The notes below the pieces were generated by a model. The model saw nothing but the letters and a program-made list of their open reading frames with translations, did not search any database and was not told the DNA's origin. From assembly GCA_965214835.1 (NCBI GenBank), contig CBDCCK010000002.1:128001-192000 (forward strand): a stretch of DNA of 64,000 bases, read 5' to 3'. Shown here piece after piece: positions 14,710 to 59,119 of the stretch; positions within the stretch are counted from its first letter, which is position 1, and every line of letters begins with the position of its first letter. The position numbers were made by a program, and so were the translations under genes. The DNA comes from Nitrosopumilaceae archaeon (GTDB lineage Archaea; Thermoproteota; Nitrososphaeria; Nitrososphaerales; Nitrosopumilaceae).

Positions 14710-14721
14710 CGGCCGGGCCCC

Positions 14722-20333: not shown

Positions 20334-20418
20334 CGTGGAAGGCGGGATTCGAACCCGCGGATCGGTTAGAATCAATTGCTTAGGAGACAACCGCTATACC
20401 TGGCTAAGCGACTTCCAC
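20334..20418 (-). tRNA. tRNA with CCT (Arg) anticodon and atypical long variable arm
   Basis: Acceptor GTGGAAG/CTTCCAC, anticodon loop CTCCTAA, T-arm GCGGG-TTCGAAT-CCCGC, variable arm GATT-CTAACC-GATC. Confidence 0.75.
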
Positions 20419-20713
20419 ATGATTCTGTCTTTACGTAATGATAAAAATGTTCTAGGGCTGATCCTAACCTTTGTCTCCCACCCTAGAACCGCCTAATCGA
20501 TTAATCCAATCTGCATGACAGAGAGGACCGCGAGCGCGAAGGCAATATTGGATTTCAAAGGCTATTATATAATTATTTGTTAGCCCAGGAGCTGGGACAT
20601 TAACGGGTGTTTATTCTCCTTGGGACATGCTGGGTGCTGGAAATCTCAGATTTTGAAGACTTAAAAACAGCATGGTCGTATGCAATTATCAGTATGGTGA
20701 TGACCTTAACTGG

Positions 20714-28764: not shown

Positions 28765-28769
28765 CGCAG

Positions 28770-39221: not shown

Positions 39222-42181
39222 GTATCTTTCTCCCTGTACTCGCCTATCGCCGCCAGTATGCGGACGCGGTTCACGTAGGACAGCGCGGCAATGCCGGCAA
39301 ACCCGCAGACCAGTATGAGTCCCGTATAGTCCTCGCGGTACAGCGCCTCGGTGCTAAAGTTCTCGCGTGCGCGCAGCTGGACTGTCTGCGAGTAGATGTC
39401 GGATCCGTGGCCCTGCGGCAGCTCGGTCCAGCGGTCAAAGACGTCAGATACCAGGAACGGTATTCTTTCTCGCGGCGGCGCGTCCAGCGTCACCATCTGG
39501 CCGTCCTCGTATATGCCGCCTCCCGTCCCGCCGTGCACCTGTATCCTTATGGTGTGCATGTATTCGAGCCTGACCACGGTCAGCCCGTCTACATTCACCG
39601 GGAACGTGGGTGTCTCCCATGTATTGCCGTCGCCGTCCGTCGCCCGCACAAAGCTGTATCCGGCGTTTCCAACTATGACGTCGCGTGGAACCTCCACGTG
39701 GGCGGTCCCCAGGCCGACTGCCGTCTCGCCGGGGATGCCGGCAGTCGCCGTCTCGCCCGACTCCGAGGTTATGACCGCCGTGCCGGTGGTGGCAATCAGT
39801 GTGCCGGTGTCTACTGCGCGGGACTCCAGCCTGAGCACCGCCCTGTCGGGTATCATATACTCGTGGGAAAAGGTGGCCGCCTCGTATCCGGGGGCCTCCA
39901 GCGTTATGTGTATATCGTACGTCCCCGGGGACACGGGCGTTATGACTATTCCGGCATCGGACTCCGTGTATGGCAGCTCCGTGTCGATTATGTGCGTGGC
40001 CGCATCCGGCGCGGCTATCCCCACGACCTGGGAGGTTCCGATGTCTATTGTGTTTGACCCGAATGCCACTGTCGCGAGATCCGACGGCAGATCGTTTGTA
40101 AAGACGGCGACTGACGTCTCCCCGAATCCGACGGTCTCCCCGAATATCGCAAACGTCTCCCGCCCGGGGGACTGCGGCATGCAGGAGTACATGTTCCGGG
40201 ACTGCGCTGCTGCCGTGCAGCCGGTCTCCATGTGCTCTGAGATGTCAAGTATGTGGCCGTCGGCCGATCTCAGGTATGCGTATGCCGGGAACTCCTCTCC
40301 CCAGCGCACCGAGTCGGGGGCCCTGATGGTCAGCTGGAACGGGCTGGCAGGTATATTGGACTGCTGGCCTGTGATGTCCTCGGTGTCCGCTATCGCGGTG
40401 ACCTCGGGGTTTCTCACGTGCGGCGTCCCATACACGTAGGTTATCGGGTGCTCGAGGCGCACCGTCTGCGGCAGGTCCGCCTGCGAGGAGATCAGCGTTA
40501 TGCGGAGATCGCCGAACGTGTCGTGCGGGTCCACCACGTTTCCGGCCGAGTCCAGCACCATGACTGCCAGTACGGGCTGCGTCCCATGATTGTCGCCGCC
40601 GGCATCAACGCTCATCTGGCGCAGCTCCAGCGTGTACCGTTCCGTTCCTACTGCGATCTCGGCTGTCGCCGATCCCGTGTGCGGCGATGACAGGTGGATG
40701 GCCGACGGGGCCTGGGATGTCGGCGTCACCCGGAATGCTACGGACTGGGCCGGGAGCCCCTCTGGATCCCACGTGATGCTCTCCTCGTGCTCCAGCCCGC
40801 TTGAGGAGACGTGGATCACGCTGCCCTCTATCCCGTATGTTGGGATCACGTCGGGGAGCGTCCTGTCGTATTTGTCGCGGAACTCCACGTCTATTACCTC
40901 GTGGTCCGGGTTTTCCGTGTCCGTGTCTATATCCCACAGCGACGTATCGGTGTATGCTGATGCCACAAGGTAGGCTGCAGAGTCCAGCGGGATGGACGGC
41001 GGGTAGACTGCCGCAGTCATGGTGTTGGGGCGTGCTGCCAGCACCTGGGAGATGCGCTCAAGCGGCCTGCAGTCGGTCTCGGTTACCGTTACCGGCTCCA
41101 GCACCGTTTCAGCGCCTCCGTCATCATCACCGGCTGCTGCAGTAGAGTTTACCGCCACCAGCTGCAGCTCTATGTGCAGTGTAGTGATGCATACCTTGAC
41201 GTCCTTCCCGTCTATCCTGTCGAGCACCTCCATTTCGGCCTCGGCGGCGCCTATACCCCGGACGCTTGCTGTAACTGACGCGGTTCCCTCCCCGTGCGTG
41301 TATAGCTTTGCCATCCCCAGCCCGTTTACGATGTTGACCTTTGTCGTGGAATGGTCAGCTGTCCTGGTCGGCGTGAAGCCGGCTATCAGCCTGTCGGATA
41401 TTGTCAGCTCGGCCTCGCGCAGCGCGGAGGATGTCACCTGCTGCTGCCTGCCTGCGGCATCCTCCAGCCAGACGAACACGTATGCATAGCTGTTGGAGGC
41501 AATCACCCCGTCAGGCGCCACGGCTACCCTGACCGAGTGCCTGTCGTGCACGTACCGTATTTCTGCCGTGTCCGATACCGTGCTGTCCGTGTATGCCGTT
41601 ATCGTGGCGTCGTCGGCATGCAGTTTTATGGGCGCCATGGCATGCGTCTCCCCGTCGCGTATGGTTACGGTATTCGGCATGTCCACGCCGGTTCCAGCAA
41701 GGTGCACCCGCGTGTCGCCTGCGGATCTGACCGGCGTTCCAAGGTGGTCTACAAGCTGGACTGCGGCCGTGAATTCCCGGGATGCCGATGCCTCTGGGAC
41801 CGTCAGCACTATGGCGGTGTCCGAGCCTGCCCTCTCGTGTATGGTGGAGAAGGCCGGCGCGGCAAACTCCCCTGCGCGCTCGGCCCTGACCTCCAGGTCT
41901 CCCGTGCCCCTTATCTTTATCTCGAACGTTCCATGGTTTCTGCCCGCAGGGATTGTTACCTCGGCCGGGATGCCTATGATGTCGGAGCTTGATGCCAGGC
42001 GTACTGTTTCTGTTGTTGCATGGCCGTCGTCGCGGATGTACACGCCGTAATAGTACGCATCCGGCTGCGTGAAGAGCATCTGGTCGGGGATGAACAGCTC
42101 GTCTGCGTGTGCTGGCATGACGGGAATGGTTGCAGCTACAGCGATTATTGCGGCGACGACTGCGTGCAGGGCGTATCTCAC
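39218..42181 (-). CDS. Large Ig-like-repeat surface protein with C-terminal TM anchor (987 aa)
   Basis: Signal peptide AHA, repeated EVTIPAG / VQL.D..G.P Ig motifs, GGTGGGIY..GQ.VTL.A repeat, TM tail. Confidence 0.85.
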   Translation of the reverse strand: MRYALHAVVAAIIAVAATIPVMPAHADELFIPDQMLFTQPDAYYYGVYIRDDGHATTETVRLASSSDIIGIPAEVTIPAGRNHGTFEIKIRGTGDLEVRAERAGEFAAPAFSTIHERAGSDTAIVLTVPEASASREFTAAVQLVDHLGTPVRSAGDTRVHLAGTGVDMPNTVTIRDGETHAMAPIKLHADDATITAYTDSTVSDTAEIRYVHDRHSVRVAVAPDGVIASNSYAYVFVWLEDAAGRQQQVTSSALREAELTISDRLIAGFTPTRTADHSTTKVNIVNGLGMAKLYTHGEGTASVTASVRGIGAAEAEMEVLDRIDGKDVKVCITTLHIELQLVAVNSTAAAGDDDGGAETVLEPVTVTETDCRPLERISQVLAARPNTMTAAVYPPSIPLDSAAYLVASAYTDTSLWDIDTDTENPDHEVIDVEFRDKYDRTLPDVIPTYGIEGSVIHVSSSGLEHEESITWDPEGLPAQSVAFRVTPTSQAPSAIHLSSPHTGSATAEIAVGTERYTLELRQMSVDAGGDNHGTQPVLAVMVLDSAGNVVDPHDTFGDLRITLISSQADLPQTVRLEHPITYVYGTPHVRNPEVTAIADTEDITGQQSNIPASPFQLTIRAPDSVRWGEEFPAYAYLRSADGHILDISEHMETGCTAAAQSRNMYSCMPQSPGRETFAIFGETVGFGETSVAVFTNDLPSDLATVAFGSNTIDIGTSQVVGIAAPDAATHIIDTELPYTESDAGIVITPVSPGTYDIHITLEAPGYEAATFSHEYMIPDRAVLRLESRAVDTGTLIATTGTAVITSESGETATAGIPGETAVGLGTAHVEVPRDVIVGNAGYSFVRATDGDGNTWETPTFPVNVDGLTVVRLEYMHTIRIQVHGGTGGGIYEDGQMVTLDAPPRERIPFLVSDVFDRWTELPQGHGSDIYSQTVQLRARENFSTEALYREDYTGLILVCGFAGIAALSYVNRVRILAAIGEYREKDT

Positions 42182-42701: not shown

Positions 42702-43268
42702 TTAGATGCCTATGCGTATGGTCTCTGTGACGTATTGCAGATTTGTATTTACTGGATCTGTAACTGTTATGTATACTGCTGTTATCGTATACCCGCCACC
42801 TGGCGCCACTCCGAGATTTCCACTTAAAACTCCGCTGAATTGGTTGGATCTACCTGAGGGGATAGATATTCCTCCAGCTGTATCTAGTCCATCGTCTGGG
42901 TCGTCAATATCGTGTGTGACAGATGCTGTACCATTAGTATATGTCCTAGCAACCCCATCAAACTGATCCGGGAGGAAAGAAGAACCACTGATCCTGTCAC
43001 CAAGATATAGTATCTCTTTTCCTGTCAGTCCATCCAAGGCCACCAGCAACACGCTAATATCGTTTCTTCCTGTGTTCTGAATCGTGGCTTCCGCTACAAT
43101 CTGTCCCGGAAGACCCTGCTTGGCAGATCCCTCGATGAATACCGTCTCTGTCGCACCCTCTCCTGCAAGGTCGCCCAGCACTCCTCCTGCGATTAGTGCG
43201 CCTGCGCCTCCGGCTATAGCTACAACAAGCCCAATCCATATGACTGTCTCTTTGGTTACCTGTACCAT
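42702..43268 (-). CDS. Pilin-like protein (first gene of operon)
   Basis: MVQVTKETVIWIGLVVAIAGGAGALIAGG...IQNTGRNDI. Confidence 0.65.
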   Translation of the reverse strand: MVQVTKETVIWIGLVVAIAGGAGALIAGGVLGDLAGEGATETVFIEGSAKQGLPGQIVAEATIQNTGRNDISVLLVALDGLTGKEILYLGDRISGSSFLPDQFDGVARTYTNGTASVTHDIDDPDDGLDTAGGISIPSGRSNQFSGVLSGNLGVAPGGGYTITAVYITVTDPVNTNLQYVTETIRIGI

Positions 43269-43402
43269 TGATTCCGCAAAACCGTTTTGCATATAAACAC
43301 GCAAATTAGCTATGTTGGTGTCATGTTGGCGGCATGATATTGAGTGTGGATGGTTGTTGTGACGCGGTTAAATGATTAGGTATGTTGTGATGTTGAATGT
43401 CT
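43255..43402 (+). repeat. Direct repeat copy 1: pilin-like 5' end and divergent promoter region (copy 2 at 48369-48506)
   Basis: 36-bp identical core GTTACCTGTACCATTGATTCCGCAAAACCGTTTTGC plus shared TGACGCGGTTAAATG and GATGTTGAATGTCT blocks. Confidence 0.88.
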
Positions 43403-43633
43403 GATAAACGCTCAAAAGTAGCTTGGGGATTAATGATTGTTGGATTCGCAGTCCTGTCTCTGGGTATCGTTTTGTTCTTGGACTTGTTTGAGCTGGACAA
43501 AGAAAACATCGGTACGGTCTTAATGACGTCAGGGGGAGTCATCATCGGAATAGGTTCCGCGGCATTGATTGCCTCAAGATCATCCAACCGGCAGAATCCG
43601 CCTGCCCGACCGCGCAGAGTCACCCGTCTTTGA
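43397..43633 (+). CDS. Small 2-TM membrane protein
   Basis: Two hydrophobic helices, divergent from the pilin operon. Confidence 0.6.
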   Translation: MSDKRSKVAWGLMIVGFAVLSLGIVLFLDLFELDKENIGTVLMTSGGVIIGIGSAALIASRSSNRQNPPARPRRVTRL

Positions 43634-45354: not shown

Positions 45355-45827
45355 TTGGACACGGAGTCGTTGGCCATAATTGCACCTGTGGCAACTTTTT
45401 CATCGCATTCATTGCCATTCGGCTGAATTATATCGACAAGCAGTTAGATATCCTGCTGCCGAAGTTCAAGTCAAAATTAGATCGTGCCGACAAGGAGCTT
45501 CAGGCGGAGATATCCAAAAGGAGTCCGAAAAAAGATGTCGTGCTGTCGTTCGCCAATCAAATCGCGTCATATACGAGCATCCGCAACACCATCAAGGAAC
45601 TTTCAAAGATGAACCGCAGGCAGGTTGCGTTGGATGCTGCCGCAATCGTGGGTATGATTACAATTGTAATAATCCACACGTATGGTTATCAGCATCAGCT
45701 AAAAGACGCGGCATCTGTCATTATCGTGCTTGCCATGGCCATGATGTTTTTTTCAGGCTTGACATTCGCTAGAAACTTTCACCGCATGAACCATTTTAAA
45801 AACAAGGCAATGGATCTCGAGGATTAG
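45355..45827 (+). pseudogene. 3-TM membrane protein with apparent 1-nt frameshift near 45396-45400
   Basis: TTG-DTESLAIIAPVAT then shifted frame FIAFIAIRLNYIDKQLDILLP... to stop 45827; paralogous to 23587-23856. Confidence 0.55.
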
Positions 45828-46339
45828 AGATCGGGCTCGTCGTATTCCGTACTGAGATACGAATCGGACTCGTAAATCCCCCTGCCTACCTTTGCCTTTA
45901 TCGTGCTTGCGCTTGCATACTGGGGGTACTGAAAGTAGACATCCTGCAGCAGCCGCGACAGGGAATACTCCTGGTATCTTTTTGTGATCGTCATGATCTT
46001 GTTGTGCAGGGCCGTGTGCTCGTGCCTCAGCCTCTCAAAGACCTTCATGCCCTGCTCTGTGACCGCGAACCTGTCCACCTTGAACCCGTAATCGTTTGTA
46101 ATCGGATGTTTTTCTATCTGGCCGCTGCCAAGCGCTCCCTCCATGTCGCCTGCCAGCCCAGCACTGAATGGTCCAAAGTTGCTTGCCCTCCAGTCGTCGT
46201 AGAACCCGACATTGCGAAGTTCCTTGATCTGCATTGCAGAGAGAAATGCGTACTTTTGCAACCTGGTCATGCCCTCCACATAGTCATGCATTCCGATCAG
46301 AAATGCCGGAATCTCCGAGCGCTCAATCATGTGCGGCAC
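45824..46339 (-). CDS. Panacea/SocA (DUF4065)-like antitoxin-domain protein
   Basis: GMTRLQKYAFL, FYDDWRASNFGPFS, VYFQYP. Confidence 0.7.
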   Translation of the reverse strand: MPHMIERSEIPAFLIGMHDYVEGMTRLQKYAFLSAMQIKELRNVGFYDDWRASNFGPFSAGLAGDMEGALGSGQIEKHPITNDYGFKVDRFAVTEQGMKVFERLRHEHTALHNKIMTITKRYQEYSLSRLLQDVYFQYPQYASASTIKAKVGRGIYESDSYLSTEYDEPDL

Positions 46340-46534: not shown

Positions 46535-47038
46535 TTATCCTGCTGTTAACAACATACCCGGATATGCGTTATAGATCCCCGTCAGCAGCGCACGCTGGCT
46601 CTCGGCCTGCAGGAGGCGTATCTTCTCGTGCAGGTCGCCTATCTCCGACGTCTTTTCTGCCAGCAGCCTGCGCCACTTGACGCGCCCCTTCGTGGTGAGG
46701 GAGTATATATCATACTTGTGATTGCCGCTGCCGGCATCCTTTTTTATCAGCCCCGCATCGACGCATTTTTCTATGTCTGCCTCCAGCTGCCTGCTGAACG
46801 GCCCGTAATGGTATGCCTTCCAGTCGTCATAAAACGGCACCATGTACTCGATTGCCAGCTCTGACAGCTCCTTCCGGTACTGTTTGTGCAGCAGAAACCC
46901 GTATTTCTGCAGCCGTGTCGCCCCGTGTACGGCATTGTCGTTTATTATGAACAGTACGCGCTCCTCTGGCTGCAGTATCATCTGCTGAATGTATGCGGTG
47001 TTGTTATAAAAAGTATCAAGGCCGGCAGTCCATACCAC
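46535..47038 (-). CDS. Panacea/SocA (DUF4065)-like antitoxin-domain protein
   Basis: GATRLQKYGFL, FYDDWKAYHYGPFS, IYNAYP; likely start about 46983. Confidence 0.7.
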   Translation of the reverse strand: MVWTAGLDTFYNNTAYIQQMILQPEERVLFIINDNAVHGATRLQKYGFLLHKQYRKELSELAIEYMVPFYDDWKAYHYGPFSRQLEADIEKCVDAGLIKKDAGSGNHKYDIYSLTTKGRVKWRRLLAEKTSEIGDLHEKIRLLQAESQRALLTGIYNAYPGMLLTAG

Positions 47039-48243: not shown

Positions 48244-48317
48244 GGGGGTGTAGTTTAGACTGGATAGAATGCCAGATTCGCAACTGGAGATTGAGGGTTC
48301 GAATCCCTCCATCCCCT
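48244..48317 (+). tRNA. tRNA-like gene with abnormal (8-nt) anticodon loop
   Basis: Acceptor GGGGGTG/CATCCCC, D-loop AGACTGGATA, CCAG-ATTCGCAA-CTGG, T-arm GAGGG-TTCGAAT-CCCTC. Confidence 0.7.
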
Positions 48318-48368: not shown

Positions 48369-48506
48369 GTTACCTGTACCATTGATTCCGCAAAACCGTT
48401 TTGCGTGTAAACACGCAAAAGTGTGGCGCGCAAGTGATTGTACCCAAATGGAATCATGGATCATGACGCGGTTAAATGGTTGGATGAATCCGGATGTTGA
48501 ATGTCT
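48369..48506 (+). repeat. Direct repeat copy 2 of 43255-43402
   Basis: Contains an orphan MVQVTKET start and palindromes GCAAAAC-C-GTTTTGC and GCGTGT-AA-ACACGC. Confidence 0.88.
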
Positions 48507-48600
48507 CGTAAGCACTCAAAATCCGCTTGCAGATCCACACGCCACCGTCCGCACCTGTGTGAATCCGATTGTGCTTGGAAAGACATACAGCACGACTGCC

Positions 48601-49851
48601 CTACTTTGCTTTCTTGATAGTTATTCTGTTGGGCAGTTTCTTGCTCTTGGCTCTGCCCTTTCCATATTTCTGATCCAAAATAAAATTAGCGTCCCTTTGA
48701 GAAATTTCTGCCCCCAGCAGATGGGCAATCAGCCTTCCTGCCGTGCGCGCCGTGCGCTTTCCATACATCACGCGCCCGTTGGTCCTTATCAATATGCCAT
48801 TCCACATGTCGTTGTCCCTGCTCCAGTTGATCCTGTTCAATTTCTTCACAAGCGTATCTTTGTCTGTGTCAGTAGCTCCCAATAAGACACATGCAAGCGA
48901 GTATCCCATGACTATTGAGAGTTGTCCTACCGGGAGTCCCAGAATGGACCTTTTGCGCAATTCGATCCTTGAACTGTCGCCATTCTTTGCCGCGTCCCCC
49001 AACACCTTTTTCCATTCTATTATGCCCGACAGCAGCCGCCTCCACTCTTTTTCTATGTCCTTTTGCATGTCATCTCTTTCCTTGTCATTCATTGTTTCTG
49101 GCCTCCCGACAATTTGAATTGGAAGCGCAGGCAGCAGCTCCCTGTTTGCCTCATAAACAGTAGACATCAGCGTAAACTCTGGTGATTTTTTGTTTAGCGA
49201 ACTGGAGTCGATGTTGACGAGTTTGCGCGGTATGATGCCGCCCTCTATTATTTTGCGCGTTATCACCGCCATGGCATCATCGTCATCTGTGATAAGCTTG
49301 CCTGCCTTTGATGTCGGTTTGGCATACTTGTTTATCTTGTTGAATATGTATCTGGAATCTCCCTTGTCAAATGGAACAATTATTACCACCACCCTGTCAT
49401 CGCCCAGCTTGTTTTCAGGATCGTTTTCAAGAACGCACTGAAATGCCCTTGCTCTGTGCTGGCCGTCAAGCGGTATCAGATGACGGCTGTCATCCTCGAA
49501 TGTGACAAACCCGAGATCCTGTGTAGGGCGGTTGTATGCCGCCGGCAGATCGTCCTTTACGACATCCCTTATGTTGTCAAACCCCATGGCTCCTCCATTT
49601 GATGCCTCTGTCGCCATCACTAGGGCGCCTGAAAACCTCCTGGCGTCTTTTGCAAAATACGGCGCAATGTCCCTGTCTATCCTGCGTTCGTCGAGTTTTC
49701 TCTGAAACTGCTCCTCAAGTGAATAGGTTTCCCAGCCGTCTACCTCTGTCGGGAATCTTATGTTCTTTACCAGATCCGCTATGCGTACAGTCATCACATA
49801 GTACTCGGTGCGTCCGAACCTTCCACGCAGTGCCGGGTATGTGGATGTCAT
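48601..49851 (-). CDS. DGQHR/DndB-family protein
   Basis: FQRKLDERRI, LIPLDGQHR, IFNKINKYAKP. Confidence 0.9.
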   Translation of the reverse strand: MTSTYPALRGRFGRTEYYVMTVRIADLVKNIRFPTEVDGWETYSLEEQFQRKLDERRIDRDIAPYFAKDARRFSGALVMATEASNGGAMGFDNIRDVVKDDLPAAYNRPTQDLGFVTFEDDSRHLIPLDGQHRARAFQCVLENDPENKLGDDRVVVIIVPFDKGDSRYIFNKINKYAKPTSKAGKLITDDDDAMAVITRKIIEGGIIPRKLVNIDSSSLNKKSPEFTLMSTVYEANRELLPALPIQIVGRPETMNDKERDDMQKDIEKEWRRLLSGIIEWKKVLGDAAKNGDSSRIELRKRSILGLPVGQLSIVMGYSLACVLLGATDTDKDTLVKKLNRINWSRDNDMWNGILIRTNGRVMYGKRTARTAGRLIAHLLGAEISQRDANFILDQKYGKGRAKSKKLPNRITIKKAK

Positions 49852-50180
49852 GGTGTGCCACCCGCGTTGTTTGTCAGTGGACGCATCTCCGATATTGCAT
49901 CAGATTCCATGGCGCGCAGGCGCCTCTCTGACACATCATGATATGAGAATGACAGCATGATCTCGTTTCTATACGTCTCAAAGTAATGTCTCAGCAGGAG
50001 ATTGTCCTCTGCAGTACAGTGCTCCCCTAGCCTCCTTCGCAGGTTCATGCTCATTCCAATATAGAGACACCTGCCGCGCAACCAAAAGCAGTAAAGACCT
50101 GGGGATTCATCAATTCCCTCGTATGACATGTACCCAAACGGCACCTGGCCTCCCGTCAGTCCGGATATGGGATCAGACAC
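49848..50180 (-). CDS. GIY-YIG nuclease-like protein
   Basis: PGLYCF...LYIGMSMNLRRRLGEH...E...PLTN. Confidence 0.8.
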   Translation of the reverse strand: MSDPISGLTGGQVPFGYMSYEGIDESPGLYCFWLRGRCLYIGMSMNLRRRLGEHCTAEDNLLLRHYFETYRNEIMLSFSYHDVSERRLRAMESDAISEMRPLTNNAGGTP

Positions 50181-51810
50181 CGCAGAGACCCTCGCACTCG
50201 CTTGCCATAAAGTCCTCATAGTCCTCCGTATCGCTAAAGTCTACTGTATCCAGTGGTTTTCTGTCCTTGTGAAGATAGCCCTCCCCGTGCAGCGTTCCAC
50301 GAATGTGCGGCACGTCGCGTATTGCCTTGTCTATGAACACCGCGTCATTAAACGAGTCCGGATCGTTTTCTTTTATCCACTTCCACTCCATGTCTGTGTG
50401 GTACGGGCATCCAACGCATGCGCTCCTAGGCAGGCTTTGTCCCGGATACCTTTCGGCAAACCATTCATAGAGCTGCGCCCGTGAAATCTCCATCTCTATC
50501 AACGGGAACCTGTTTGTTATCCATTCGTTTCTGCTCGGCTTCATGCGGTGGGCCTCGTCGGCACTTATTCCCATCCACATCTCTACCTGCATGTTCTTTG
50601 GCGCGCGCTTGCCCGGCTCCAGATTTAACATGTTCCGAAGTTCCCTGTGAATCGGCCGTATCTTGTAATGGTTGGTGCACTGCCTGGCAGCCACCGACCT
50701 GCTGCCGTCCTTGTTTATTAAAAATACCGGCATGTCCAGAAACTTGTCTCCTGCAGGCGTCACACCCTTTAGCACGTTCTCGCGTATGTCTCCTGCCGTA
50801 ACCCTGATCACCTTGTAGGACAGCTGCTTTTCAAGCCAGTCAAGGTGCTTGTATACGTGCGGCGGCTCCCACTTTGTGTCCGCAAATATGGCAACATCCG
50901 GCTTTTCCAGTCCTCCCCATCCGCTTTCTGCCATGAGCGCCATCACTGTTGACTGGGTACCGGCCCCCAAGCTGAGCACCTTGAATTTTTTTACGCCCCT
51001 CAGATACCGGCGGTCAGACACAGATTCGGGCCTGCACATCTGGCGGTCAACTGCGCGGCTTACCAGGCCCCGTGCATCCCCCTGCGTCAGCACATCCAAT
51101 AATCTGGAGCCTGCCTCCAGGTTCAGCTCCCTGGCCACCATCCTGTATCCGTAGCGGTTCATGCCTTTCCCCTCGTTGAGCAGTGCCCTGATGCACTCGG
51201 CCCGGACTGTCGGATTGCGCAGTACCCCGAACTCCATCGTATGGTGATAGTATTCAGGATGCTTGGAGAACATGTCCAGTGCCTGTCGTGTATCAAACGC
51301 CCCGTTTGAGGCCTCTGCTGACTGCCGTGCAATGTGTGCTATCCACCATGTCCTGCCTGAAATGCTTGCCTCGTATATATCCCGTTTCTGTGACGACTTT
51401 GTGAGCCAGTGTTTTTGCACGTTTGATGCCGTCGTCTTTTTTCCACTTATCGGCCAGCGCTCTATCCCGTATCTGTGCAGATATACGTGGTTTATGTATG
51501 CGAGCAGCTCCGGCATCACTGCAAGCTTTGGCGTCATCCCTGTCAGGGAGTTGTAAAAATCAAGCGCCTGGGAATCTGCCTCATGACGTCGATTCACTGG
51601 CTTGTCTGCAGGCGGCATCATCATGATTGGACTGCCGCTGACTGTCACGTCCACACTTTTTCTATAATCGTCAATGCCGTTTTCCCGTAGCAACTTGACA
51701 AAGTCGGCATCCGGGTTCTCGTAATGATCTAGGTTGTCTGTTATGTTGCCCAAAAGCCATTCAAATGCCTCGTCAGAGAACCTGTACAGCTCACTCATTG
51801 CCTGCATCAT
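50173..51810 (-). CDS. DUF6339-like domain fused to PAPS-reductase-like domain
   Basis: N-terminal TPKLA...Y..ERW...ISGRTWWIAH (DUF6339-like); C-terminal LSLGAGTQST, IFADTKWEP, CTNHYK, RSACVGCPYH, ECEGLCGV. Confidence 0.75.
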   Translation of the reverse strand: MMQAMSELYRFSDEAFEWLLGNITDNLDHYENPDADFVKLLRENGIDDYRKSVDVTVSGSPIMMMPPADKPVNRRHEADSQALDFYNSLTGMTPKLAVMPELLAYINHVYLHRYGIERWPISGKKTTASNVQKHWLTKSSQKRDIYEASISGRTWWIAHIARQSAEASNGAFDTRQALDMFSKHPEYYHHTMEFGVLRNPTVRAECIRALLNEGKGMNRYGYRMVARELNLEAGSRLLDVLTQGDARGLVSRAVDRQMCRPESVSDRRYLRGVKKFKVLSLGAGTQSTVMALMAESGWGGLEKPDVAIFADTKWEPPHVYKHLDWLEKQLSYKVIRVTAGDIRENVLKGVTPAGDKFLDMPVFLINKDGSRSVAARQCTNHYKIRPIHRELRNMLNLEPGKRAPKNMQVEMWMGISADEAHRMKPSRNEWITNRFPLIEMEISRAQLYEWFAERYPGQSLPRSACVGCPYHTDMEWKWIKENDPDSFNDAVFIDKAIRDVPHIRGTLHGEGYLHKDRKPLDTVDFSDTEDYEDFMASECEGLCGV

Positions 51811-52597
51811 CCTTGAGTATGTGCCTTAGGGGGTTTTCCAGCAGGTTTTGCGCGATGACGTATGGTGATTCCTTGTATGGGGGCTCATATCCGCGTTTTT
51901 TCAGGCTGTCTGTAAGCGCTTGTGCCCATTTCCTATCCAGGTTGTCTCCAAGTTCCTGTATTGCATGTGTGATGGCCGACATGTAAAGCGATGGAAACAG
52001 CACATGATCCCTGGCGTTCCTCCTTGCGCGTACCCTGTTAAAAGTGGTCTTGTGCATTCTTATCTGTATTTTATCCCCGCTCAGATCAATCCTGTACTGG
52101 TCCTCGCCTACCGACTTTTCTGGTATTATTTGTATGGCTGACCCTATCTTCTGGATGGAATCAAGCGTGAGCTCGTGCGTGTCCCCCATTGCAAGTATGG
52201 CGCCTGCTGGCAGATGGCACCTTATTCCCTTGAATTCCCTGTCGTGTTCTGCTGAGGAAAATGCCTCTATGTTCCGGATGGCTGCTATGTATGGAAGGAG
52301 TGTTATCTTTTCTGCATAGTCTGCCTCTGTGAGAGTTATTGTGGTCTTGGATTCCCTTATCTGAAATACCTGGCGGGCATATGTGCTTGGGCACCTTACT
52401 GCAATGAAAAAGCCTGCGTTGCCGTCAGTTATCTGCTGGCTCAGAAACCTGCTTTTTAGATCTGTCGTCATTTCTATCTTGATGCATCCGTCAAGTGTCC
52501 TCTGCACGTTGCCATCTATACTCGTGTCAAAGATGCATTCTTTTTGATAATCCTGGCGATCCGGTGATAATACCGGGTGCGGTATCAGCGCAGTCAT
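51791..52597 (-). CDS. Hypothetical protein in GHKL operon
   Basis: PHPVL...DY, VRCPSTYAR, PAGAILAMG, AQNLLENPL; overlapped on both sides. Confidence 0.8.
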   Translation of the reverse strand: MTALIPHPVLSPDRQDYQKECIFDTSIDGNVQRTLDGCIKIEMTTDLKSRFLSQQITDGNAGFFIAVRCPSTYARQVFQIRESKTTITLTEADYAEKITLLPYIAAIRNIEAFSSAEHDREFKGIRCHLPAGAILAMGDTHELTLDSIQKIGSAIQIIPEKSVGEDQYRIDLSGDKIQIRMHKTTFNRVRARRNARDHVLFPSLYMSAITHAIQELGDNLDRKWAQALTDSLKKRGYEPPYKESPYVIAQNLLENPLRHILKDDAGNE

Positions 52598-54442
52598 CTT
52601 TCAACCGTGCCTCCCATTGCACACTCCACGATGTCATACCCCGGATAGGCCGCCCCCTTGTCGGTCACGACATCCAGTATTATCCGCCTGTCCGGCGCGG
52701 TGTTTATCTCTACAATGTTGTTGTCAAGTGATACTGAGACTCCGTCTGACGGAAAGACGTTCCTTACATCGTGCAATCGCACGGCGTCTTCATCATATGC
52801 CTCCTCTCCTGCAGGCTTTATCATGAATCGGATGCTGCCTGACTTTGGTGTAAAGGCGACCCGCAGCGTGTTTTCAGATTTGATTATGCGCCGATTGCTT
52901 ATGTTGGTGATGCCGTCGTTGATATGCTGTCTGCCGTCGTTGCCGCCGTCATGTCCGCCATCAGATCCATCAGCACTTTCGGCACCACTGCCATCTCCTG
53001 CTTGACCTCCTCCCCCGTCCCCCTCACGTACCGGTTTGGGTTTTTGTTTTGGAAGCTGGCGTTTCTTGTGTTTAATCTCATCAGGTATGCTATCAGGCAG
53101 ATCTTCATCGTCAAATAATGGTAGTATGTCCTGCAGTTCCGTGAGATTTGTCTGGTTTCCGTCGTTGCCTATCTCCAGTATTTTTTGTATGTGGTCACGC
53201 ACCTTGTCTCCCAGGATTTTAAGCAGTTGATCCGTACTCTTCCGCTCGTTGGGATCTGCAATCCTTTCAAATTCTATTGTCTCGTGGGTCGGAGGCTCCA
53301 TCTTACGTATGCGTTCGTCAGTCCTGTCATCTTCGGCGCATATGACTGCCATAAAGTTCCCAATGTCCCCCAGGCGAGGATGGAACGGGTTTTTCCTGCG
53401 TGATTTCTCATCAGTTATCATCATTCCCCTGCGGTTTATGTACGCCACACGGTTGTCCATGTCGTCATCACCTGTCACGGCCTTTAGGGTGAATCTGCCA
53501 AACTTGCCCTCGATTTTTTCCCAGCCGCCATCGGGGCTCTTGATTATATCGTAATAGTGCCTCCTGTTGACATCATCAAAATCGATTTCGTTTAGCGTCT
53601 CGTGTGATATGGTTTTGCTCCCTACTATTACGCGCAGTTTTTTGTCATGTATTGCAGAAAAGAAATTACGCGCCACGGATTTTATTGCCGCCTTTTCCCA
53701 ACCCTGCTCCATGAACCCGATTATGAATATGCCGCTTCCCTGTGAATCAAGCCTGAACGACTTGTCTATGTCATTGCCCATTATCGGCTGGAAGCGCGAA
53801 TCCCTGAGCTCGTTTGACGTGCCAAAACCCACATTCTGCAAATCATGTCTGTTGTTTTTAGGATCACGATGTGTCACCAGCTGGCACCTGGCAATGAATT
53901 TCTCGTACCGGTTCCGGTTGAGGTATCTGGTGGAATATCCGACCATTTTTAGCTGTGAGGCCACATATGGGGCGTTCTTTCCTATCCCATAGCTTCCCCC
54001 GGCAGCACCAACCCCGGTTTTGTCTGGTGTGCCCTCCATGTACACCAGGGCATCCCATTTGCGGTCTGTCAGTCCGGTGGTATTCTTGTCTACTATTTTG
54101 AGTGTTGGAATACGCTTGCTCTGCAGTATTTTCAGTGATTTCTTGAAGAATTTGACGGCATCATCATGACGAACATAGTTCATCTTCTTTATCGACTCCT
54201 TTATGTGCGGTATCAGGTCGTTGCCGCCGATCATGCGGCTTGTAACATCTATCATTTCCATCGTTACGATGACAGGTAGATCAGAACGTCTGCCATCATG
54301 TGCATCCAGCGAGTTCTGTATTACCTCGCGGATGACATGACCCATCACGTCTGCCCTGAAAAGCTCCTGACTACCGTGATTAAAGCCGGTATCGATCCCC
54401 CCCCCCCGTAGGCGGAAAATTCCACTTTATCTTGTTTGTCAT
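52594..54442 (-). pseudogene. GHKL (HATPase_c) ATPase, frameshifted at a G11 tract (54397-54407)
   Basis: REVIQNSLDA (N box), DKNTTGL, GGSYGIGK; G10 restores MTNKIKWNFPPTGGGIDTGFNHGSQELF from ATG 54442. Confidence 0.82.
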
Positions 54443-54880
54443 GCGTTGTCTTGCCATGATCTGAGAGGGACTCACTGCCTTACCATTATGTACCCCAGTA
54501 TAAAGAATTTATGTAACAAACAGACAAGAGTCTCTCCCTCAAAAGAATTCGGATACCATCCACTCTATTATTCCAAAAAATATGTCCCAGCCGCCAACTA
54601 TAACTGCCGCGCAGCACAGCGTCACTCCTGCAGGCATCGTTGCCCGCAGCGTGTAATATGCCGTCTTTGCAACCACCATCCCAGAGCATGCTGCCATGAG
54701 TACGATTGCAGGCTTTAACGCATTAATTGCTTGGAAATCTCCTAGACAATAAAACTCGATGACGATACCTGAAGGGATTGCCGTCGTGGCAGGCACTACA
54801 ATGCCGTCCCTTAACAATCAACCGAAATCCCGCATTTTTCCAATCTAAATATACCAAACATGTTAAGAGATGACGTTGAC

Positions 54881-54968
54881 GTTGGCGTTGGCAAGCCCAC
54901 CGAGCTGATGCCTCGGCGAGTGGCCCCGAGACGGGCCGTTCATGCGGGTTCAACTCCCGTCGCCAACG
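54881..54968 (+). ncRNA. tRNA-like RNA: GAT anticodon, truncated D arm, 9-bp variable stem
   Basis: GTTGGCG/CGCCAAC acceptor, CCGAG-CTGATGC-CTCGG, GAGTGGCCC-CGAGAC-GGGCCGTTC, GCGGG-TTCAACT-CCCGT. Confidence 0.6.
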
Positions 54969-55229
54969 CTGTAATCTATCCAGACATTCTATAAAAAAGT
55001 AGGGATCTGAAAGTTTACAGCTGACGCTGAGATGTAGCCGCATGTGTGATTATAGTCACGGTGGTTCTCATATGGCGGCTTGAATTAACTGCAAAGACAC
55101 GGCACCGGCAGCTGCAATCCCGCACCTCTAGGCTGCAATGCCGCCAAGTAATAATCGTCATTAACTTAGGACATCCTTCAGCAAGTGTCCAAGGCATCAT
55201 ACCGCAAAAACATGTCATGAAATATTAGT

Positions 55230-55724
55230 GTGTATGTGTATGATGATGTAGTGGATCCCAAACCAATCATGTTGAATCCCGAAGATCGGGTATTGTTCAT
55301 AATCAATGACAGGATAATCGAGGGATCCACAAGGTTTCAAAAATACGGCTTTTTGCTGTTCAAGCAGTATCAAAAGGAGCTGACTGAGCTGAGGATGAGT
55401 CATCCCGGCTTTGATTTTTACCGTGACTGGGTTCCCCATCACTTTGGCCCGTACAGCCGACAGCTCAGCCTGGACATGCAGTCCTGCATCAAGGGTGGAC
55501 TGATGAGCAAGGTCCTGATAGACCGTTCAAGCCGTTATGCACTTACACTTAGAGGCCGCGTCAGATGGAGAAAGCTCCTTGCCATCTCTCCTGATCAGGT
55601 CACTGCAATGTCAGAAAAGGTGGCCAACATGCAAAGGACATCCCTTTACGGATTGCTGAGGTCAATCTACAGCGCCTATCCGGAATATGCGGTAAACAGC
55701 CAGATAAAAGAAAGACTACAGTGA
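55230..55724 (+). CDS. Panacea/SocA (DUF4065)-like protein, paralogue of 46535-47038
   Basis: PEDRVLFIIND..IEGSTRFQKYGFL...DWVPHHFGPYS...IYSAYP. Confidence 0.72.
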   Translation: MYVYDDVVDPKPIMLNPEDRVLFIINDRIIEGSTRFQKYGFLLFKQYQKELTELRMSHPGFDFYRDWVPHHFGPYSRQLSLDMQSCIKGGLMSKVLIDRSSRYALTLRGRVRWRKLLAISPDQVTAMSEKVANMQRTSLYGLLRSIYSAYPEYAVNSQIKERLQ

Positions 55725-56650: not shown

Positions 56651-57487
56651 TCATCTGCCTGCCTCCCTTTGGTGCCGTACGATGAACTCCATCGGAGTGA
56701 GATATCCAAGCGAGGAGTGTATTCTATCGTGATTATAGTCCCTAAAGGCCTCCTTTATGACGTCTGAGGCGTCCTGAAAGGAGCCAAATTCATGGGGCCA
56801 CAGGTATTCCCTCTTGATGCTTCCGTGAAACGACTCTATGTGGCCGTTTTGCTCTGGCGTCCTGTATGCTATGAGCTCGTGCCTGATTCCCAGCTGTTTT
56901 AGGGACTCCCTGAACATACGCGATGTATACTGAGAACCGTTGTCTGTTCGCAGGGTCAGCATGCTGCAGTCCGGATCTGCTGCCGATACCGCATCGAGTA
57001 CGGCCTGAACCGCATTCTCCTTTTGCGCCGTGGTATCAAAGGAGTATGCAAGCCATCTGCGCGAAAAGGCATCAAGTACGTTGAAACAGTAGCACCAGCC
57101 GTCCCCGCCGCAGTCCACGTATGTAATGTCTGCCTGCCACAGCCGGTTGGGGGCATCTGGCCTTGTAAGCTTGCGCGAGGCCCGTATTATGTCGTTTTTG
57201 GTCTTTTTGGGCTCGATCCAGCCTATCTGGCGGTAGATTCGCTGTATCTTTTTGCGGTTTACGCGTACGCCAGTCTCGCGCAATATCTGGTTTGCCATCC
57301 TCCGGGTTCCATACGTCGGCCTTTTCTTGCCTATGGTACGTATGATTGAGACCGTCCCAGAGTCGGCTTTTCTGGTCCGTCTGTCGACGTCCTTCCTGGC
57401 GTAATACCAGGTGCCCTTTGAGACGCCGCAGTATTTCAGGGCCGTGTTGAGGCTCATCTTCTGGTGGCAGATCTGTACGGCATTCAT
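56651..57487 (-). CDS. IS3-family transposase OrfB (DDE)
   Basis: YGTRR, WQADIT, RTDNGSQY, TPEQNGHIESFHG, YNHDRIHSSLGY. Confidence 0.93.
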   Translation of the reverse strand: MNAVQICHQKMSLNTALKYCGVSKGTWYYARKDVDRRTRKADSGTVSIIRTIGKKRPTYGTRRMANQILRETGVRVNRKKIQRIYRQIGWIEPKKTKNDIIRASRKLTRPDAPNRLWQADITYVDCGGDGWCYCFNVLDAFSRRWLAYSFDTTAQKENAVQAVLDAVSAADPDCSMLTLRTDNGSQYTSRMFRESLKQLGIRHELIAYRTPEQNGHIESFHGSIKREYLWPHEFGSFQDASDVIKEAFRDYNHDRIHSSLGYLTPMEFIVRHQREAGR

Positions 57488-57771
57488 CCTTTGCTCAGCT
57501 CCATTGTTTTTTTTAAAGCGTCACAGGCCACTGCATACTCGCCTATGATGCGTTTGAGATTCTGGTTCTCCTTTTGCAGGGCAGCCGCTACCTTGTCATT
57601 CCGGCCCAGGATGGATGCCTTGCCGCCCTCGACGAACCTGTCCATCCACCTGCCAAACGTGGTGGGCGCGATGTTGTGCTTGCGGCACAGCTCGGCAGTG
57701 CTGATGCTGGTCTTGATGGACTCCATCACTATGTCTGTCTTTTCGGCCAATGTGAACTTTTGTTTTTTCAT
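57484..57771 (-). CDS. IS3-family OrfA (HTH)
   Basis: FTLAEKTDIV...AELCRKHNI...W, LQKENQNLK zipper. Confidence 0.88.
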   Translation of the reverse strand: MKKQKFTLAEKTDIVMESIKTSISTAELCRKHNIAPTTFGRWMDRFVEGGKASILGRNDKVAAALQKENQNLKRIIGEYAVACDALKKTMELSKG

Positions 57772-59119
57772 GCCCCGTATGCCCTCCTGTCATATACAAA
57801 TTCTACGCATTTGGGTGGTTCGAATTTTATGGGGTCCTCACCAGCCTGACGACCGGGGAATTGCTGCACGTCTTGCCCATTATCCCCTTGATCACCCTGA
57901 ACCCGGTCTCGATTCCCCACCGACTGCGGTACTCCTCCGGTATCTGCTCAATGACTGCCTCTGCACTTTTAGCAGACATGTTGGTGGCAAAGACCAGATA
58001 CCTGTCGGCTATGGTCTCTTCTGCCTTGTCCTTCTTTGCTGCTGCCGTGCCGTCCTTTTCTACCTCGTCCTTTTCCACAATGACTAGCCTGAATGTGGCG
58101 CTCTTGCCGTCCTTGTTGGTCATTGTATATTTTGATACCGCACCGCGTTCTCCGCGGTCATGCTCCTCTATTGCCGCCACTATCCTCCTGTTCTTGACGG
58201 CAGGCATGATGTAGCTGCCCGTGCTTGTTTCTGCAGCCCTCATGCAGTCCACGTTAAAGAACCCGCGGTCATACAGGAACGTCTTGATCCTCATCCCTGA
58301 TCTGGACGCCTTGCGGATCATTTTAGGCACGAAATCGGCCAGTTTTGCCTCTTTTGGAAGCTGCAGCGAGGAAAGCACGAGGTCAGACCCGTCATCTGAT
58401 CCTATTCCGTGCATGGTAATGTGCGAGAGAAACGTCGACGTGCCGTTCTTGGGCTTTGACTTTCTGGCGATATCCTCCAGGCCCTTGCCATAGTATTCCA
58501 CGTCGGTAACGTCCACTGCCACGACGTCCGTGTTGTGCAGCATGCCTGACCTGCGGGCGCACCTTACCGTATGCTGCAGCATGGAGCTGCACCACTTTTG
58601 CGCATCATCCAGGCTGACGCCCCGGATCGCCTTTAGGATCCAGTCCGGACTAGGCGTACGGCAACTATACGCGCCGCCCTTGGAGGCAGCCCCGTCGTCA
58701 TGCTGCTGCCTGCTGCATTTTGAGGCCCGCCTGCGAAGGTGCGTCACGGCAGATTCTGCAAACATCCTCCTCTCAGACATGAAATATAGAACGCGCAGTG
58801 CGTCGATGTGGTCATACACTGCGTTGCGACTCTTTGAGACGGCCAGCCCGAGCTTGGGAAACCGCCGTCGCAATGTTTTAAACTGTCTCGATGTTATGTC
58901 AAACTGGTGTGCAAACACGTCGTTTTGTGTTACTGACATGATGATGGTTGGCACACCGCCTGATCTATAGTATGATGGTCAAAAAATCTCGGCAAATTGC
59001 GTAATTATCGTGCCTGCAAAAGTACATCGAGGAACTACTGATATGGCTGTGACTCCCATTCCCAGCTGGCAAGGAAATGCGACTTCACGCCGATGTATCA
59101 ATGGAACAACGGAGTTGTA

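Follow-up and report, generated by a model that had tools for sequence, protein, structure and literature searches.

The 64,000-nucleotide stretch analysed here, referred to as the window, comes from contig CBDCCK010000002.1 of a Nitrosopumilaceae archaeon (GenBank assembly GCA_965214835.1, positions 128,001 to 192,000). It contains five co-oriented minus-strand genes, A-B-C-D-E, which occupy positions 48601-54442. Coordinates are positions in the window, labels of the L0xx and L1xx type denote examined loci, G147 is a relative genome, and X1-X4 are sequencing runs. Successive genes overlap by 4 (A/B), 20 (B/C), 47 (C/D) and 4 (D/E) nucleotides; since all four junctions overlap, the operon is one translationally coupled unit. 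We read it as a modification-and-restriction defence operon, in which a PAPS-reductase-type enzyme would mark DNA in the place of a DNA methyltransferase (MTase), gated by a poly-G tract in the first gene. We assign this reading a probability of about one half.

According to this reading, the operon would be an extended archaeal form of the candidate defence system PDC-M33, the core of which comprises the GHKL ATPase A, the adaptor B and the DUF6339 protein C. The PAPS domain of protein C would use ATP and sulfur from a housekeeping desulfurase to place a self mark on the cell's own DNA. The mark would be a phosphorothioate or another adenylation-dependent sulfur modification; that it is a phosphorothioate specifically is a tentative proposal. 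DUF6339 and protein B would tether the PAPS enzyme to the GHKL ATPase in a complex. The ATPase would take the nucleoside triphosphatase (NTPase) and DNA-clamping role of DndD, SspC or BrxC, and drive discrimination against unmarked DNA. The GIY-YIG protein D would be an add-on nuclease that cuts, for which an Mrr domain fused to protein A or a neighbouring HNH gene would substitute in relatives, and the DGQHR protein E would be an add-on regulator or ATPase cofactor, as are DndB and DpdB elsewhere. Slippage in the poly-G tract would turn the whole coupled operon on or off, and the sequenced population would carry the out-of-frame G11 allele. The coordinates of the genes, domains and flanking features are listed in Table 1.

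Table 1. Positions and assignments of the operon genes, their parts and the flanking features in the window.
Feature	Positions	Strand	Size or location	Assignment
Gene A	52594-54348 as longest open reading frame; true ATG 54442	minus	584 residues from GTG 54348	GHKL ATPase
Gene B	51791-52597	minus	268 residues	no match in Pfam, NCBIfam or PHROG; probable adaptor
Gene C	50173-51810	minus	545 residues	DUF6339::PAPS-reductase fusion
Gene C, N-terminal half	51025-51810	minus	residues ~1-262	DUF6339, mostly helical
Gene C, C-terminal half	50173-50997	minus	residues ~272-545	SspD-like / phage-type PAPS reductase, PP-loop
Gene D	49848-50219	minus	123 residues	stand-alone GIY-YIG nuclease domain
Gene E	48601-49851	minus	416 residues	DGQHR/DndB-like protein
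Poly-G tract	54397-54407	minus	codons 12-15 of gene A	G11 on gene strand (C11 on plus strand); conserved Thr-Gly-Gly-Gly
TATA-like AT-rich stretch	54498-54513	minus	~55-70 nucleotides upstream of ATG 54442	read from sequence
Two HsdS-like/PDC-M19A-like fragments	45824-46339, 46535-47038	minus	downstream flank	PADLOC PDC-M19A 7.9e-8, 3e-6
HsdS-like/PDC-M19A-like fragment	55230-55724	plus	upstream flank	PADLOC PDC-M19A 1.2e-10; Type I specificity subunit 5.9e-5
Insertion sequence (IS) elements	56651-58954		beyond the upstream HsdS-like fragment	transposase domains

The five proteins of the operon

Gene C encodes a protein that can be divided into a DUF6339 half and a PAPS half. The DUF6339 half matches Pfam PF19866 (1.6e-18, 67.5 bits against a cut-off of 23.2) and PADLOC PDC-M33C (2.4e-21), and its residues 205-234 give a weak HTH_21 hint (E 0.016). 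The PAPS half matches the phage family phrog_424 (6.3e-46) and PADLOC SspD (5.4e-16, in a library without a curated cut-off). The model of the whole protein has a predicted local distance difference test (pLDDT) value of 88.4. In the VIA structure search, the PAPS half aligned with the PAPS reductase 7rge (Z 12.0, root-mean-square deviation 4.2, 167 aligned residues), LarE-[4Fe-4S] (Z 10.8) and NcsA (Z 10.6). Residues 272-545 reached a Z of at least 8 with 33 PP-loop-type chains, and their modelled fold is that of the PP-loop/PAPS-reductase family. Foldseek with the whole gene C model returned nothing at E ≤ 0.001 and weak PP-loop rows only, searches of PDB chains with the sequence and the alignment gave nothing useful, and the DUF6339 half had no usable match in the ESM Atlas. 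The motifs LSLGAGxQST, FADT, RQC378T, C465-x-G-C468-PYH and the C-terminal EC539EGxC543 are invariant in 19 family members, and include five cysteines of the PAPS half (C378, C465, C468, C539 and C543). Judging from these motifs, the PAPS half probably carries a [4Fe-4S] site. Alignment with PAPS-family proteins from the same genome places the gene C loop in the SspD-like S-x-G-x-G-x-x-S-T type.

The DUF6339::PAPS fusion is real and not an artefact. A search with the gene C protein identified 427 proteins at E ≤ 0.001, and among the matches listed there were 119 non-self homologs with 49-72% identity, most of them about 540 residues long and annotated as DUF6339. Named fused homologs come from metagenome-assembled genomes (MAGs) of Thaumarchaeota/archaea, Pirellulales and Chloroflexi. 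The DUF6339 half retrieved 145 clusters at E ≤ 1e-3 among 1.84 billion cluster representatives, most with lengths of ~235-290 residues. Eleven of these clusters are of fused size, with DUF6339 at the N-terminus, and one (P0370) is a natural fusion of B with DUF6339, in which the B profile is recognised with a probability of 99.9% and E 4.5e-36 (hhalign). Three independent fusions, of a nuclease to A in a relative described below, of B to DUF6339, and of DUF6339 to PAPS, thus link the parts of the system to each other.

The sequence family closest to the PAPS half is that of the phage phrog_424 PAPS reductases, which are 36-44% identical to it over residues 262-545 and have all the conserved motifs in common with it, including the C-terminal E-C-E-G-x-C-G. 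The phage proteins differ in that they have a single domain of ~270 residues and are encoded in replication modules, without a GHKL, DUF6339 or DndB partner. Examples of the phrog_424 type are found in Geobacillus phage PK5.1, Pelagibacter phage HTVC034P, Salisaeta phage SSIP-1 and Thermus phage P23-77, and the same PAPS family is present in phages of Synechococcus and Mycobacterium. To our knowledge, no function has been assigned to the stand-alone phage PAPS reductases. A metagenome scan with the gene C alignment gave at least 592 pattern matches, of which at least 550 were confirmed; these relatives, which are very common in the contigs searched, are stand-alone, 42-51% identical and ~270 residues long. 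The 80 metagenome loci that were kept (L028-L107) all contain stand-alone PAPS reductases, and none the fused form.

Protein A matches PADLOC PDC-M33A (1.2e-72); it has no match in Pfam or NCBIfam, and a sequence search against PDB chains was unproductive. The GHKL motifs E8-N12-D15, D87..T90-G92 and G117-G118-S119-x-G121-I122-G123-K124 are invariant in an alignment of 23 gene A sequences. The AlphaFold model, with a pLDDT of 76.1, matches Hsp90/TRAP1 in Foldseek (E 1.2e-9). In the VIA structure search, the model aligned with SMCHD1 (Z 16.6, root-mean-square deviation 3.8, 288 aligned residues), GRP94 (Z 15.9), MORC3 (Z 15.3), MORC2 (Z 14.3) and MutL (Z 13.1). Protein A is predicted to be a GHKL and transducer ATPase of the DNA- or chromatin-handling kind (MORC/SMCHD1/Hsp90/MutL type). 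It shares the predicted GHKL and transducer module with the MORC, SMCHD1 and MutL ATPases, and aligns best with SMCHD1. It differs in that no sequence-level family match was found, in its own C-terminal beta-sandwich beyond the GHKL module, and in having B and DUF6339 as partners. Prokaryotic MORC-like ATPases were reportedly linked to restriction-modification (RM) systems by Iyer, Abhiman and Aravind in 2008.

Protein B matches PADLOC PDC-M33B (3.3e-38). Pfam, NCBIfam and PHROG contain no match to it, and the ESM Atlas gives only unnamed 'hypothetical protein' clusters. Only 8-10 residues are invariant across 11 sequences, and there is no nuclease-like or obvious catalytic motif; protein B is probably an adaptor subunit. 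The complex of A (residues 1-400), B and DUF6339 (residues 1-265) was predicted with a score of 0.77, compared to 0.74 with A replaced and 0.00/0.01 with the partner replaced, and this prediction is not used as evidence.

The catalytic residues of the GIY-YIG protein D (G41-L42-Y43, Y53-x-G55, R63, H67, E71, N73, E105 and N117) are invariant in four of four homologs, and its best PDB profile match is the GIY-YIG domain of UvrC (E 0.11). Protein E matches Pfam DndB (1.2e-39), contains the D-G-Q-H-R motif in its translation, and passes the DGQHR model TIGR03187 with 90.8 bits (cut-off 58.85). It fails the DndB equivalog TIGR03233, with 114.3 bits against a cut-off of 328. The canonical DndB of the genome scored 395.7 bits in a genome scan in which protein E scored 136.6 bits. 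By these profile scores, protein E is a DGQHR (ParB/Srx superfamily) paralogue, not an orthologue, of the canonical DndB.

These assignments confirm by motifs, profiles and predicted folds what an earlier, sequence-only reading of this DNA had proposed, namely five overlapping co-oriented minus-strand genes for a GHKL ATPase, a further protein, a DUF6339::PAPS fusion, a GIY-YIG protein and a DGQHR/DndB protein. That reading had also remarked on missing partners, and no match to a cysteine desulfurase, DndD/E, SspB/C or an MTase was found among the five proteins or the open reading frames (ORFs) scanned ~5 kb to each side. It expected PADLOC to return no full match, and the only hit is the candidate PDC-M33, for A, B and C. 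The kinship to DndC/SspD that it had suggested is borne out in part: the PAPS half has a match to PADLOC SspD, but is closer to the stand-alone phage PAPS reductases than to SspD or DndC.

Related loci and known modification systems

Thirteen PAPS-type loci were examined, counting the window (the window, L001-L010, L108 and L109). In three of them, from archaeal genomes (L001, L002 and L108), the complete set of five genes is arranged as in the window, and L109 contains A-B-C-D up to the end of its contig. L003 has A-B-C with a fused C and carries an Mrr_cat_2 endonuclease domain on the N-terminus of A (L003:3721-6096), without D or E. L004 has A-B-C, also with a fused C, and an HNH gene directly upstream (L004:3192-4142). 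Another HNH gene is located directly downstream of the DndB-like gene of L108 (L108:12617-14038), and GmrSD lies upstream in L002 (L002:1638-3473). Relatives differ in the nuclease partner of the system, and Eco57I-type, GmrSD and HNH genes stand beside their loci. The Dehalococcoidia loci L005, L007, L008 and L009 are composed of A, B and a stand-alone DUF6339 gene, directly followed by a separate PAPS-reductase gene. In L006 (4612-7897) and L010 (4644-7876), also on Dehalococcoidia chromosomes, DUF6339 and PAPS genes are ~1.7 kb apart, without A or B; a PIN-domain gene is positioned between the two in L006. Five further loci (L011-L015) contain the PAPS gene alone, in mobile-element settings. 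When the hit lists of the three families were compared by the lengths of the longest contigs, 42 of the 119 listed C rows were shared with A, 28 with E, and 18 with both, which is a rough lower bound on co-location and not a measure of adjacency.

The arrangement of these loci bears on the alternative that two unrelated systems stand side by side, PDC-M33 (A-B-C) and a separate PAPS-reductase/GIY-YIG/DndB module. Defence islands pack independent systems together, and D and E are missing from eight of the 13 PAPS-type loci, as this alternative would predict. Nevertheless, we regard it as very improbable, because DUF6339 and PAPS are one polypeptide in the window and in 119 homologs among the matches listed, are adjacent genes in four more loci, and are linked in two loci that lack A and B. 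In addition, all the gene junctions of the window operon overlap.

Canonical PDC-M33 trios, consisting of A, B and DUF6339, were identified by a tblastn search of plasmids with gene A, which gave 20 records. Seven were opened, of which six were annotated, and they represent five lineages. The Priestia trio adjoins a Sau3AI/MutH endonuclease and dcm. The neighbours of the Deinococcus trio are a cytosine-5 (C5) MTase and vsr, and those of the Planococcus trio are an AlwI endonuclease, vsr and a C5-MTase. The Ligilactobacillus trio (two records) has hsdS and an N6-MTase upstream, and an MmeI-like MTase and a helicase downstream. AlwI and two Dam MTases are located 2.5 kb away from the Lactococcus trio. 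A DNA MTase is thus present within 7 kb of the canonical trio in five of five lineages, and a PAPS enzyme in none. In contrast, only two of the 13 PAPS-type loci (L003 and L007) have an MTase within 7 kb, in neither case adjacent to the operon. This complementary distribution suggests that one A-B-DUF6339 machine takes either a PAPS enzyme or an MTase as its partner, and, as far as gene neighbourhoods can tell, that the two are alternatives for marking.

The earlier reading had stated that such trios often lie beside cytosine MTases. The link to MTases held in all five plasmid lineages, in three of them with cytosine-5 MTases, and the proposal that a PAPS enzyme stands in the MTase's place agrees with the distribution. 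Its question of whether the fusion is genuine and its neighbourhood conserved is answered by the fused homologs among the 119 listed and by the five-gene order in L001, L002 and L108.

PDC-M33 is a three-gene candidate predicted from its embedding in RM, BREX or DISARM operons, according to the consulted part of Payne et al. 2024 (bioRxiv 10.1101/2024.01.29.577857). Its three PADLOC models recognise A, B and the DUF6339 half of C, and the A-B-C order is the same and is also found on plasmids. The window operon differs from PDC-M33 by the additional PAPS domain of C, two further genes, the lack of an adjacent MTase, the archaeal host and the poly-G tract in A.

Phosphorothioation is established for four systems only, Dnd, Ssp, Tdp and BREX type 4, each with a PAPS-reductase-fold enzyme that needs an NTPase and with a desulfurase that can be a housekeeping one (PMC12914056, sections consulted). 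BREX type 4 is, as an analogy, the closest to the window operon. In that system, BrxP and the BrxC ATPase make phosphorothioate with a housekeeping desulfurase (PMC12914056, same sections), and BrxP, in which a PAPS reductase is joined to DUF4007, a DNA-binding domain, replaces the PglX MTase (PMC12839542, in the portion consulted). The operon matches the logic of a PAPS-family enzyme in the place of an MTase, fused to a non-catalytic, probably DNA-binding domain. A counterpart to the need of BrxP for a partner ATPase and a borrowed housekeeping desulfurase is proposed for the operon; the host genome contains at least five full-length Aminotran_5 desulfurase-type genes. The operon differs from BREX type 4 in having a GHKL instead of a P-loop ATPase, and in the N-terminal position of DUF6339, whereas DUF4007 is C-terminal in BrxP. 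BrxP, BrxC, PglZ and BrxL have no PADLOC match in the operon or its flanks, and BrxP does not match C at E ≤ 0.01.

A link of the operon to the Ssp system is suggested by the match of the PAPS half to PADLOC SspD. The PAPS half shares the S-x-G-x-G-x-x-S-T loop, R-x-C, C-x-x-C and the C-terminal cysteine pair with a second, SspD-like gene of the window, but the phage family matches it far better than SspD does. SspB (DUF4007), SspC (DUF6079) and SspE were not found by Pfam or PADLOC among the operon proteins or flanking ORFs. The Dnd system likewise combines a DGQHR/DndB-like protein with a PAPS-reductase-fold enzyme in one operon. It differs in that gene E is below the DndB equivalog cut-off and the gene C loop is not of the SGGKDS type; gene C has no match to PADLOC DndC at E ≤ 0.01, and DndD and DndE are absent from the operon and its flanks. 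The canonical dnd cluster of the genome is 1.2 Mb away (G000:C2:1378843-1384829) and encodes DndB, DndD (442 bits, cut-off 246), a desulfurase, and a DndC-like ORF of 474 residues with an FSGGKDST loop. The operon lacks the partners that define Dnd, Ssp and BREX type 4, and therefore belongs to none of these systems. DndD is above the cut-off in only six of 11 operon-bearing genomes; it is not above it in G147, which has all five operon genes, nor in four Dehalococcoidia chromosomes. With DndD missing above the cut-off from five of 11 genomes, the operon does not depend on Dnd, and a dependence on the canonical system was rejected.

Several observations weigh against a role in marking and restriction. 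The PAPS half matches Pfam PAPS_reduct with 1.4e-3, which is below the curated cut-off, and has the variant PP-loop SLGAGTQST, compared to FSGGKDST in the genome's own DndC-like protein. Its nearest relatives are the stand-alone phage PAPS reductases, which have no ATPase partner in their replication modules. Gene D scores 2.6e-4 and 21.6 bits for Pfam GIY-YIG, just under the cut-offs of 22.6 (PF01541) and 22.4 (PF20815). D and E occur in only five of the 13 PAPS-type loci, and are therefore accessory and not the core restriction part; the earlier reading had taken them for restriction or regulatory parts. The four Dehalococcoidia loci lack any recognisable nuclease, and the MTase adjacency of the canonical trios rests on five lineages, a small sample. 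The PADLOC authors list the PDC systems as untested (bioRxiv 10.1101/2024.01.29.577857, consulted part). Finally, no second length of the poly-G tract is present in the contigs that cover it, and the locus may simply be off or dying.

Some of these points would fit a defence operon without a self mark, in which the PAPS domain would serve as an effector or in signal processing after sensing by GHKL-B-DUF6339, with invader DNA, nucleotides, tRNA or a protein as its substrate. The structural neighbours of the domain within ~2 Z units include the tRNA thiolases NcsA and TtuA, as well as LarE, QueC, TilS and CBASS Cap9. The closest sequence family is a stand-alone phage enzyme, and four loci carry A-B-C-PAPS without a recognisable nuclease. 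However, DUF6339 has either a PAPS enzyme as its partner or DNA MTases in its vicinity, as expected of interchangeable marking modules, and the PAPS domain matches SspD (5.4e-16). Furthermore, the DndB-like partner belongs to a family tied to DNA modification in Dnd and Dpd, according to the literature sections consulted. We consider such an effector function unlikely and favour the marking role of the PAPS enzyme.

The poly-G tract of gene A

The reading frame of gene A from ATG 54442 stops after 20 codons with the G11 tract, and G10 or G13 would be in frame. The family consensus W-x-F-P-P-T-G-G-G-x-x-Q-G-F-N-D and the N-termini of homologs span the tract. Therefore, the true start is ATG 54442, and the tract encodes conserved glycines. 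The other four operon genes are intact, and so is the rest of gene A, with 584 codons. At the same site, L002 has G10 and is out of frame. L109 has no tract there, and its frame changes at a G8 run ~45 codons further on. L001 has G7 at the site and G12 inside the gene, and is in frame, as is L108, which has no tract (GGT GGT GGA). Three of the five archaeal copies of gene A (window, L002 and L109) are thus out of frame at G runs.

The G11 tract is present in contigs from runs X1 and X2 (6410 nucleotides, no differences) and X3, whereas the contigs from X4, with a depth of 2, break at the tract. The four runs are all from one study and may include the source sample, and the comparison was made with assembled contigs, which drop rare variants. 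An error of the long assembly at this site is unlikely, as the assemblies of three separate runs have the same G11. The 6410-nucleotide contigs extend ~6 nucleotides beyond window position 54900. The best reading of G11 that the sequence offers is a phase-variable slippage switch, which would alternate gene A between frames. The G10 allele singled out by the earlier reading would restore the frame, but we see in G11 a contingency switch more readily than a defect.

The length distribution of G/C tracts in the genome is bimodal, with 34, 14, 20, 21, 11 and 5 tracts of lengths 8 to 13, whereas A/T tracts fall steadily with length. There are 59 G/C tracts of at least 10 nucleotides (10-18) in the genome, and the tract in gene A is the only one in the window; a G9 run is located at 22923-22931. 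At least 12 tracts, belonging to 11 genes, are positioned no more than ~215 nucleotides upstream of, or within the first 50 nucleotides of, ORFs of 1689-4897 codons. The G is on the coding strand of these giant genes in all but one case. Further tracts are found at the 5' ends of ORFs of 200-600 codons. On the plus strand, poly-C tracts cluster at 0-0.9 and 2.37-3.2 Mb, and poly-G tracts at 0.92-2.25 Mb.

Twenty tract-associated ORFs were scanned against Pfam and 18 had a match, 16 of which are surface, glycan-modifying or restriction/helicase genes. The giants comprise four proteins with LVIVD, EPTP, cadherin-like or Ig-like repeats and one with a plastocyanin-like domain. Six glycosyltransferases and a sulfotransferase form the glycan group. 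Methylation and restriction genes encode a fusion of an N6/N4 DNA MTase with Mrr (two tracts), an Mrr endonuclease and a DEAD helicase. The others are two small-molecule-type methyltransferases, a DeoC aldolase and the two ORFs without a match. By analogy, this repertoire looks like that of bacterial contingency loci, and the tract-bearing genes look like an archaeal 'phasome'.

RM genes that are phase-variable through poly-G/C tracts are described from Campylobacter, Neisseria and Helicobacter (for example PMC6321876, PMC5953494, sections consulted). As in the window, their G tract is in the 5' coding region of a defence gene, and, as in this genome, tracts occur genome-wide at surface-protein, glycosyltransferase and RM genes. 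Unlike in the bacterial examples, the tract lies in an archaeal genome, the gene that it would switch encodes an ATPase and stands first among the five genes of its operon, and the tract is known from contigs with a single length. Our literature searches turned up no account of poly-G phase variation for Thaumarchaeota or sponge symbionts, nor of such a set of contingency loci for archaea, and the consulted part of PMC2831843 treats archaeal homopolymers statistically only.

Alternatively, G11 would not be a switch, and gene A would be a pseudogene, produced by a slip or a homopolymer miscall, in a decaying operon. Every tract-covering contig has G11 and no alternative length, with runs from one study, and three of five archaeal gene A copies being out of frame is expected under decay too. 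We nevertheless judge decay to be improbable. Genes B to E and 584 codons of A are intact, the agreement of the three run assemblies speaks against a miscall, and the tract coincides with conserved Gly codons, for which relatives have GGT GGT GGA (L108), G7 (L001) or G10 (L002). In addition, the G/C tracts of this genome are bimodal in length, and are placed in the 5' ends of surface-protein, glycosyltransferase and RM genes or a short way in front of them.

A switched locus could also serve modification only, as an epigenetic switch ('phasevarion') or in stress protection (gene expression, oxidant resistance), with the poly-G tract randomising its state. According to the literature sections consulted, Dnd modification often occurs where restriction genes are lacking, and roles outside defence have been reported for it. 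There is a minimal four-gene form without a nuclease, and the other poly-G genes of the genome are typical phase-variable surface and glycan genes. Against this, nucleases recur in the family, with GIY-YIG in five loci, Mrr_cat_2 on A in L003, and HNH beside L004 and L108. The A-B-C core was picked out by its embedding in RM, BREX and DISARM operons (bioRxiv 10.1101/2024.01.29.577857, consulted part), and the window locus lies between HsdS-like fragments and IS elements. We find a role in modification alone slightly more improbable still than decay, and prefer a switched modification-and-restriction operon.

Genomic setting and meaning of the operon

The host genome has 3.22 Mb with a guanine and cytosine (GC) content of 52.6%, and contains archaeal small- and large-subunit rRNA genes; family-level relatives have genomes of 1.1-1.8 Mb. 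Among the homologs with a name, the nearest come from Cenarchaeum, Thaumarchaeota and Nitrosopumilaceae MAGs. A comparison at the DNA level with E. coli genomes and with plasmids gave no match. The window provides a defence-type setting, with HsdS-like fragments, IS elements, and Cas3-HD-like and MTase genes. The AT-rich stretch upstream of gene A is a possible archaeal promoter element, judged by its composition and position. No flanking direct repeats or att sites were found around the operon. Of the 221-nucleotide stretch at 48380-48600, the rest of the genome contains short partial copies only. Run contigs terminate within 48400-48526, where the depth is 5-10 times that of the operon, and partial copies of this segment are found at 43266-43425 and elsewhere in the genome. 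Odd tRNA-like elements identified by ARAGORN flank the operon at 48244-48317 and 54875-54969.

A hydrophobic ORF of 67 codons is located upstream of the archaeal gene A (54486-54689, minus strand). In five of six annotated bacterial PDC-M33 loci, a hypothetical ORF of 76-80 residues is positioned directly upstream of gene A and may encode a small regulator. The upstream small ORFs are at L026:6632-6862, L027:6666-6896, L133:6482-6724, L134:6658-6891 and L136:6482-6724.

The second SspD-like PAPS reductase of the window is stand-alone (1038-1871, minus strand) and matches PADLOC SspD (3.8e-34) and BrxP (2.2e-14). It adjoins a Cas3-HD-like ORF (Cas3g 3e-47, C-terminal part only) and a type II N6/N4 DNA MTase; the ORFs of this neighbourhood are at 2077-3261 and 5088-5897, both on the plus strand. 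A close paralogue of the gene is present at G000:C2:2023106-2023879 (locus L019). The segment 10422-23577 resembles an integrated conjugative-type element beside a tRNA-Arg gene (20333-20419), with a GC fraction of 0.60-0.65 across 10-20 kb. Its cargo includes two TraG/VirB4-like ATPases (11713-16563; PADLOC mad8), a TBP-like gene (10422-11057), a matrixin-like peptidase and an Eco57I-like methylase (20714-22837). Island ORFs of 1061, 987, 848 and 726 residues are located at 36036-42181 (minus strand), 26434-28980 (minus strand) and 24133-26313 (plus strand). None of these four had a PADLOC match, and the three that were scanned against Pfam had no match there either.

No literature naming DUF6339 or PDC-M33, and none describing the operon, was found; supplementary tables of PMC12914056, PMC12839542 and the PADLOC preprint might list such loci. 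The neighbourhood screen in the consulted sections of PMC12914056 required a P-loop NTPase, and so could not have found an operon like this one. The operon may represent a fifth, mechanistically distinct route to a sulfur-type or other adenylation-dependent DNA self mark, in which a MORC/SMCHD1-like GHKL ATPase, in place of a P-loop NTPase, would be joined to an SspD-like enzyme through DUF6339 and B. The PAPS enzyme and MTases would be interchangeable in a single restriction machine common to archaea and bacteria, and in ammonia-oxidising archaea the system would be switched as part of a poly-G phasome of surface, glycan and defence genes. We put this broader proposal forward as rather doubtful.

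If the reading is true, a GHKL-driven version would widen the known ways in which cells mark DNA, and a first clue to the function of DUF6339 and PDC-M33 would be at hand. The stand-alone PAPS reductases that are widespread in phages might also be accounted for, as they could copy or counter the mark. The poly-G tract in gene A belongs to a set of loci that has the look of textbook contingency loci, in an archaeon.

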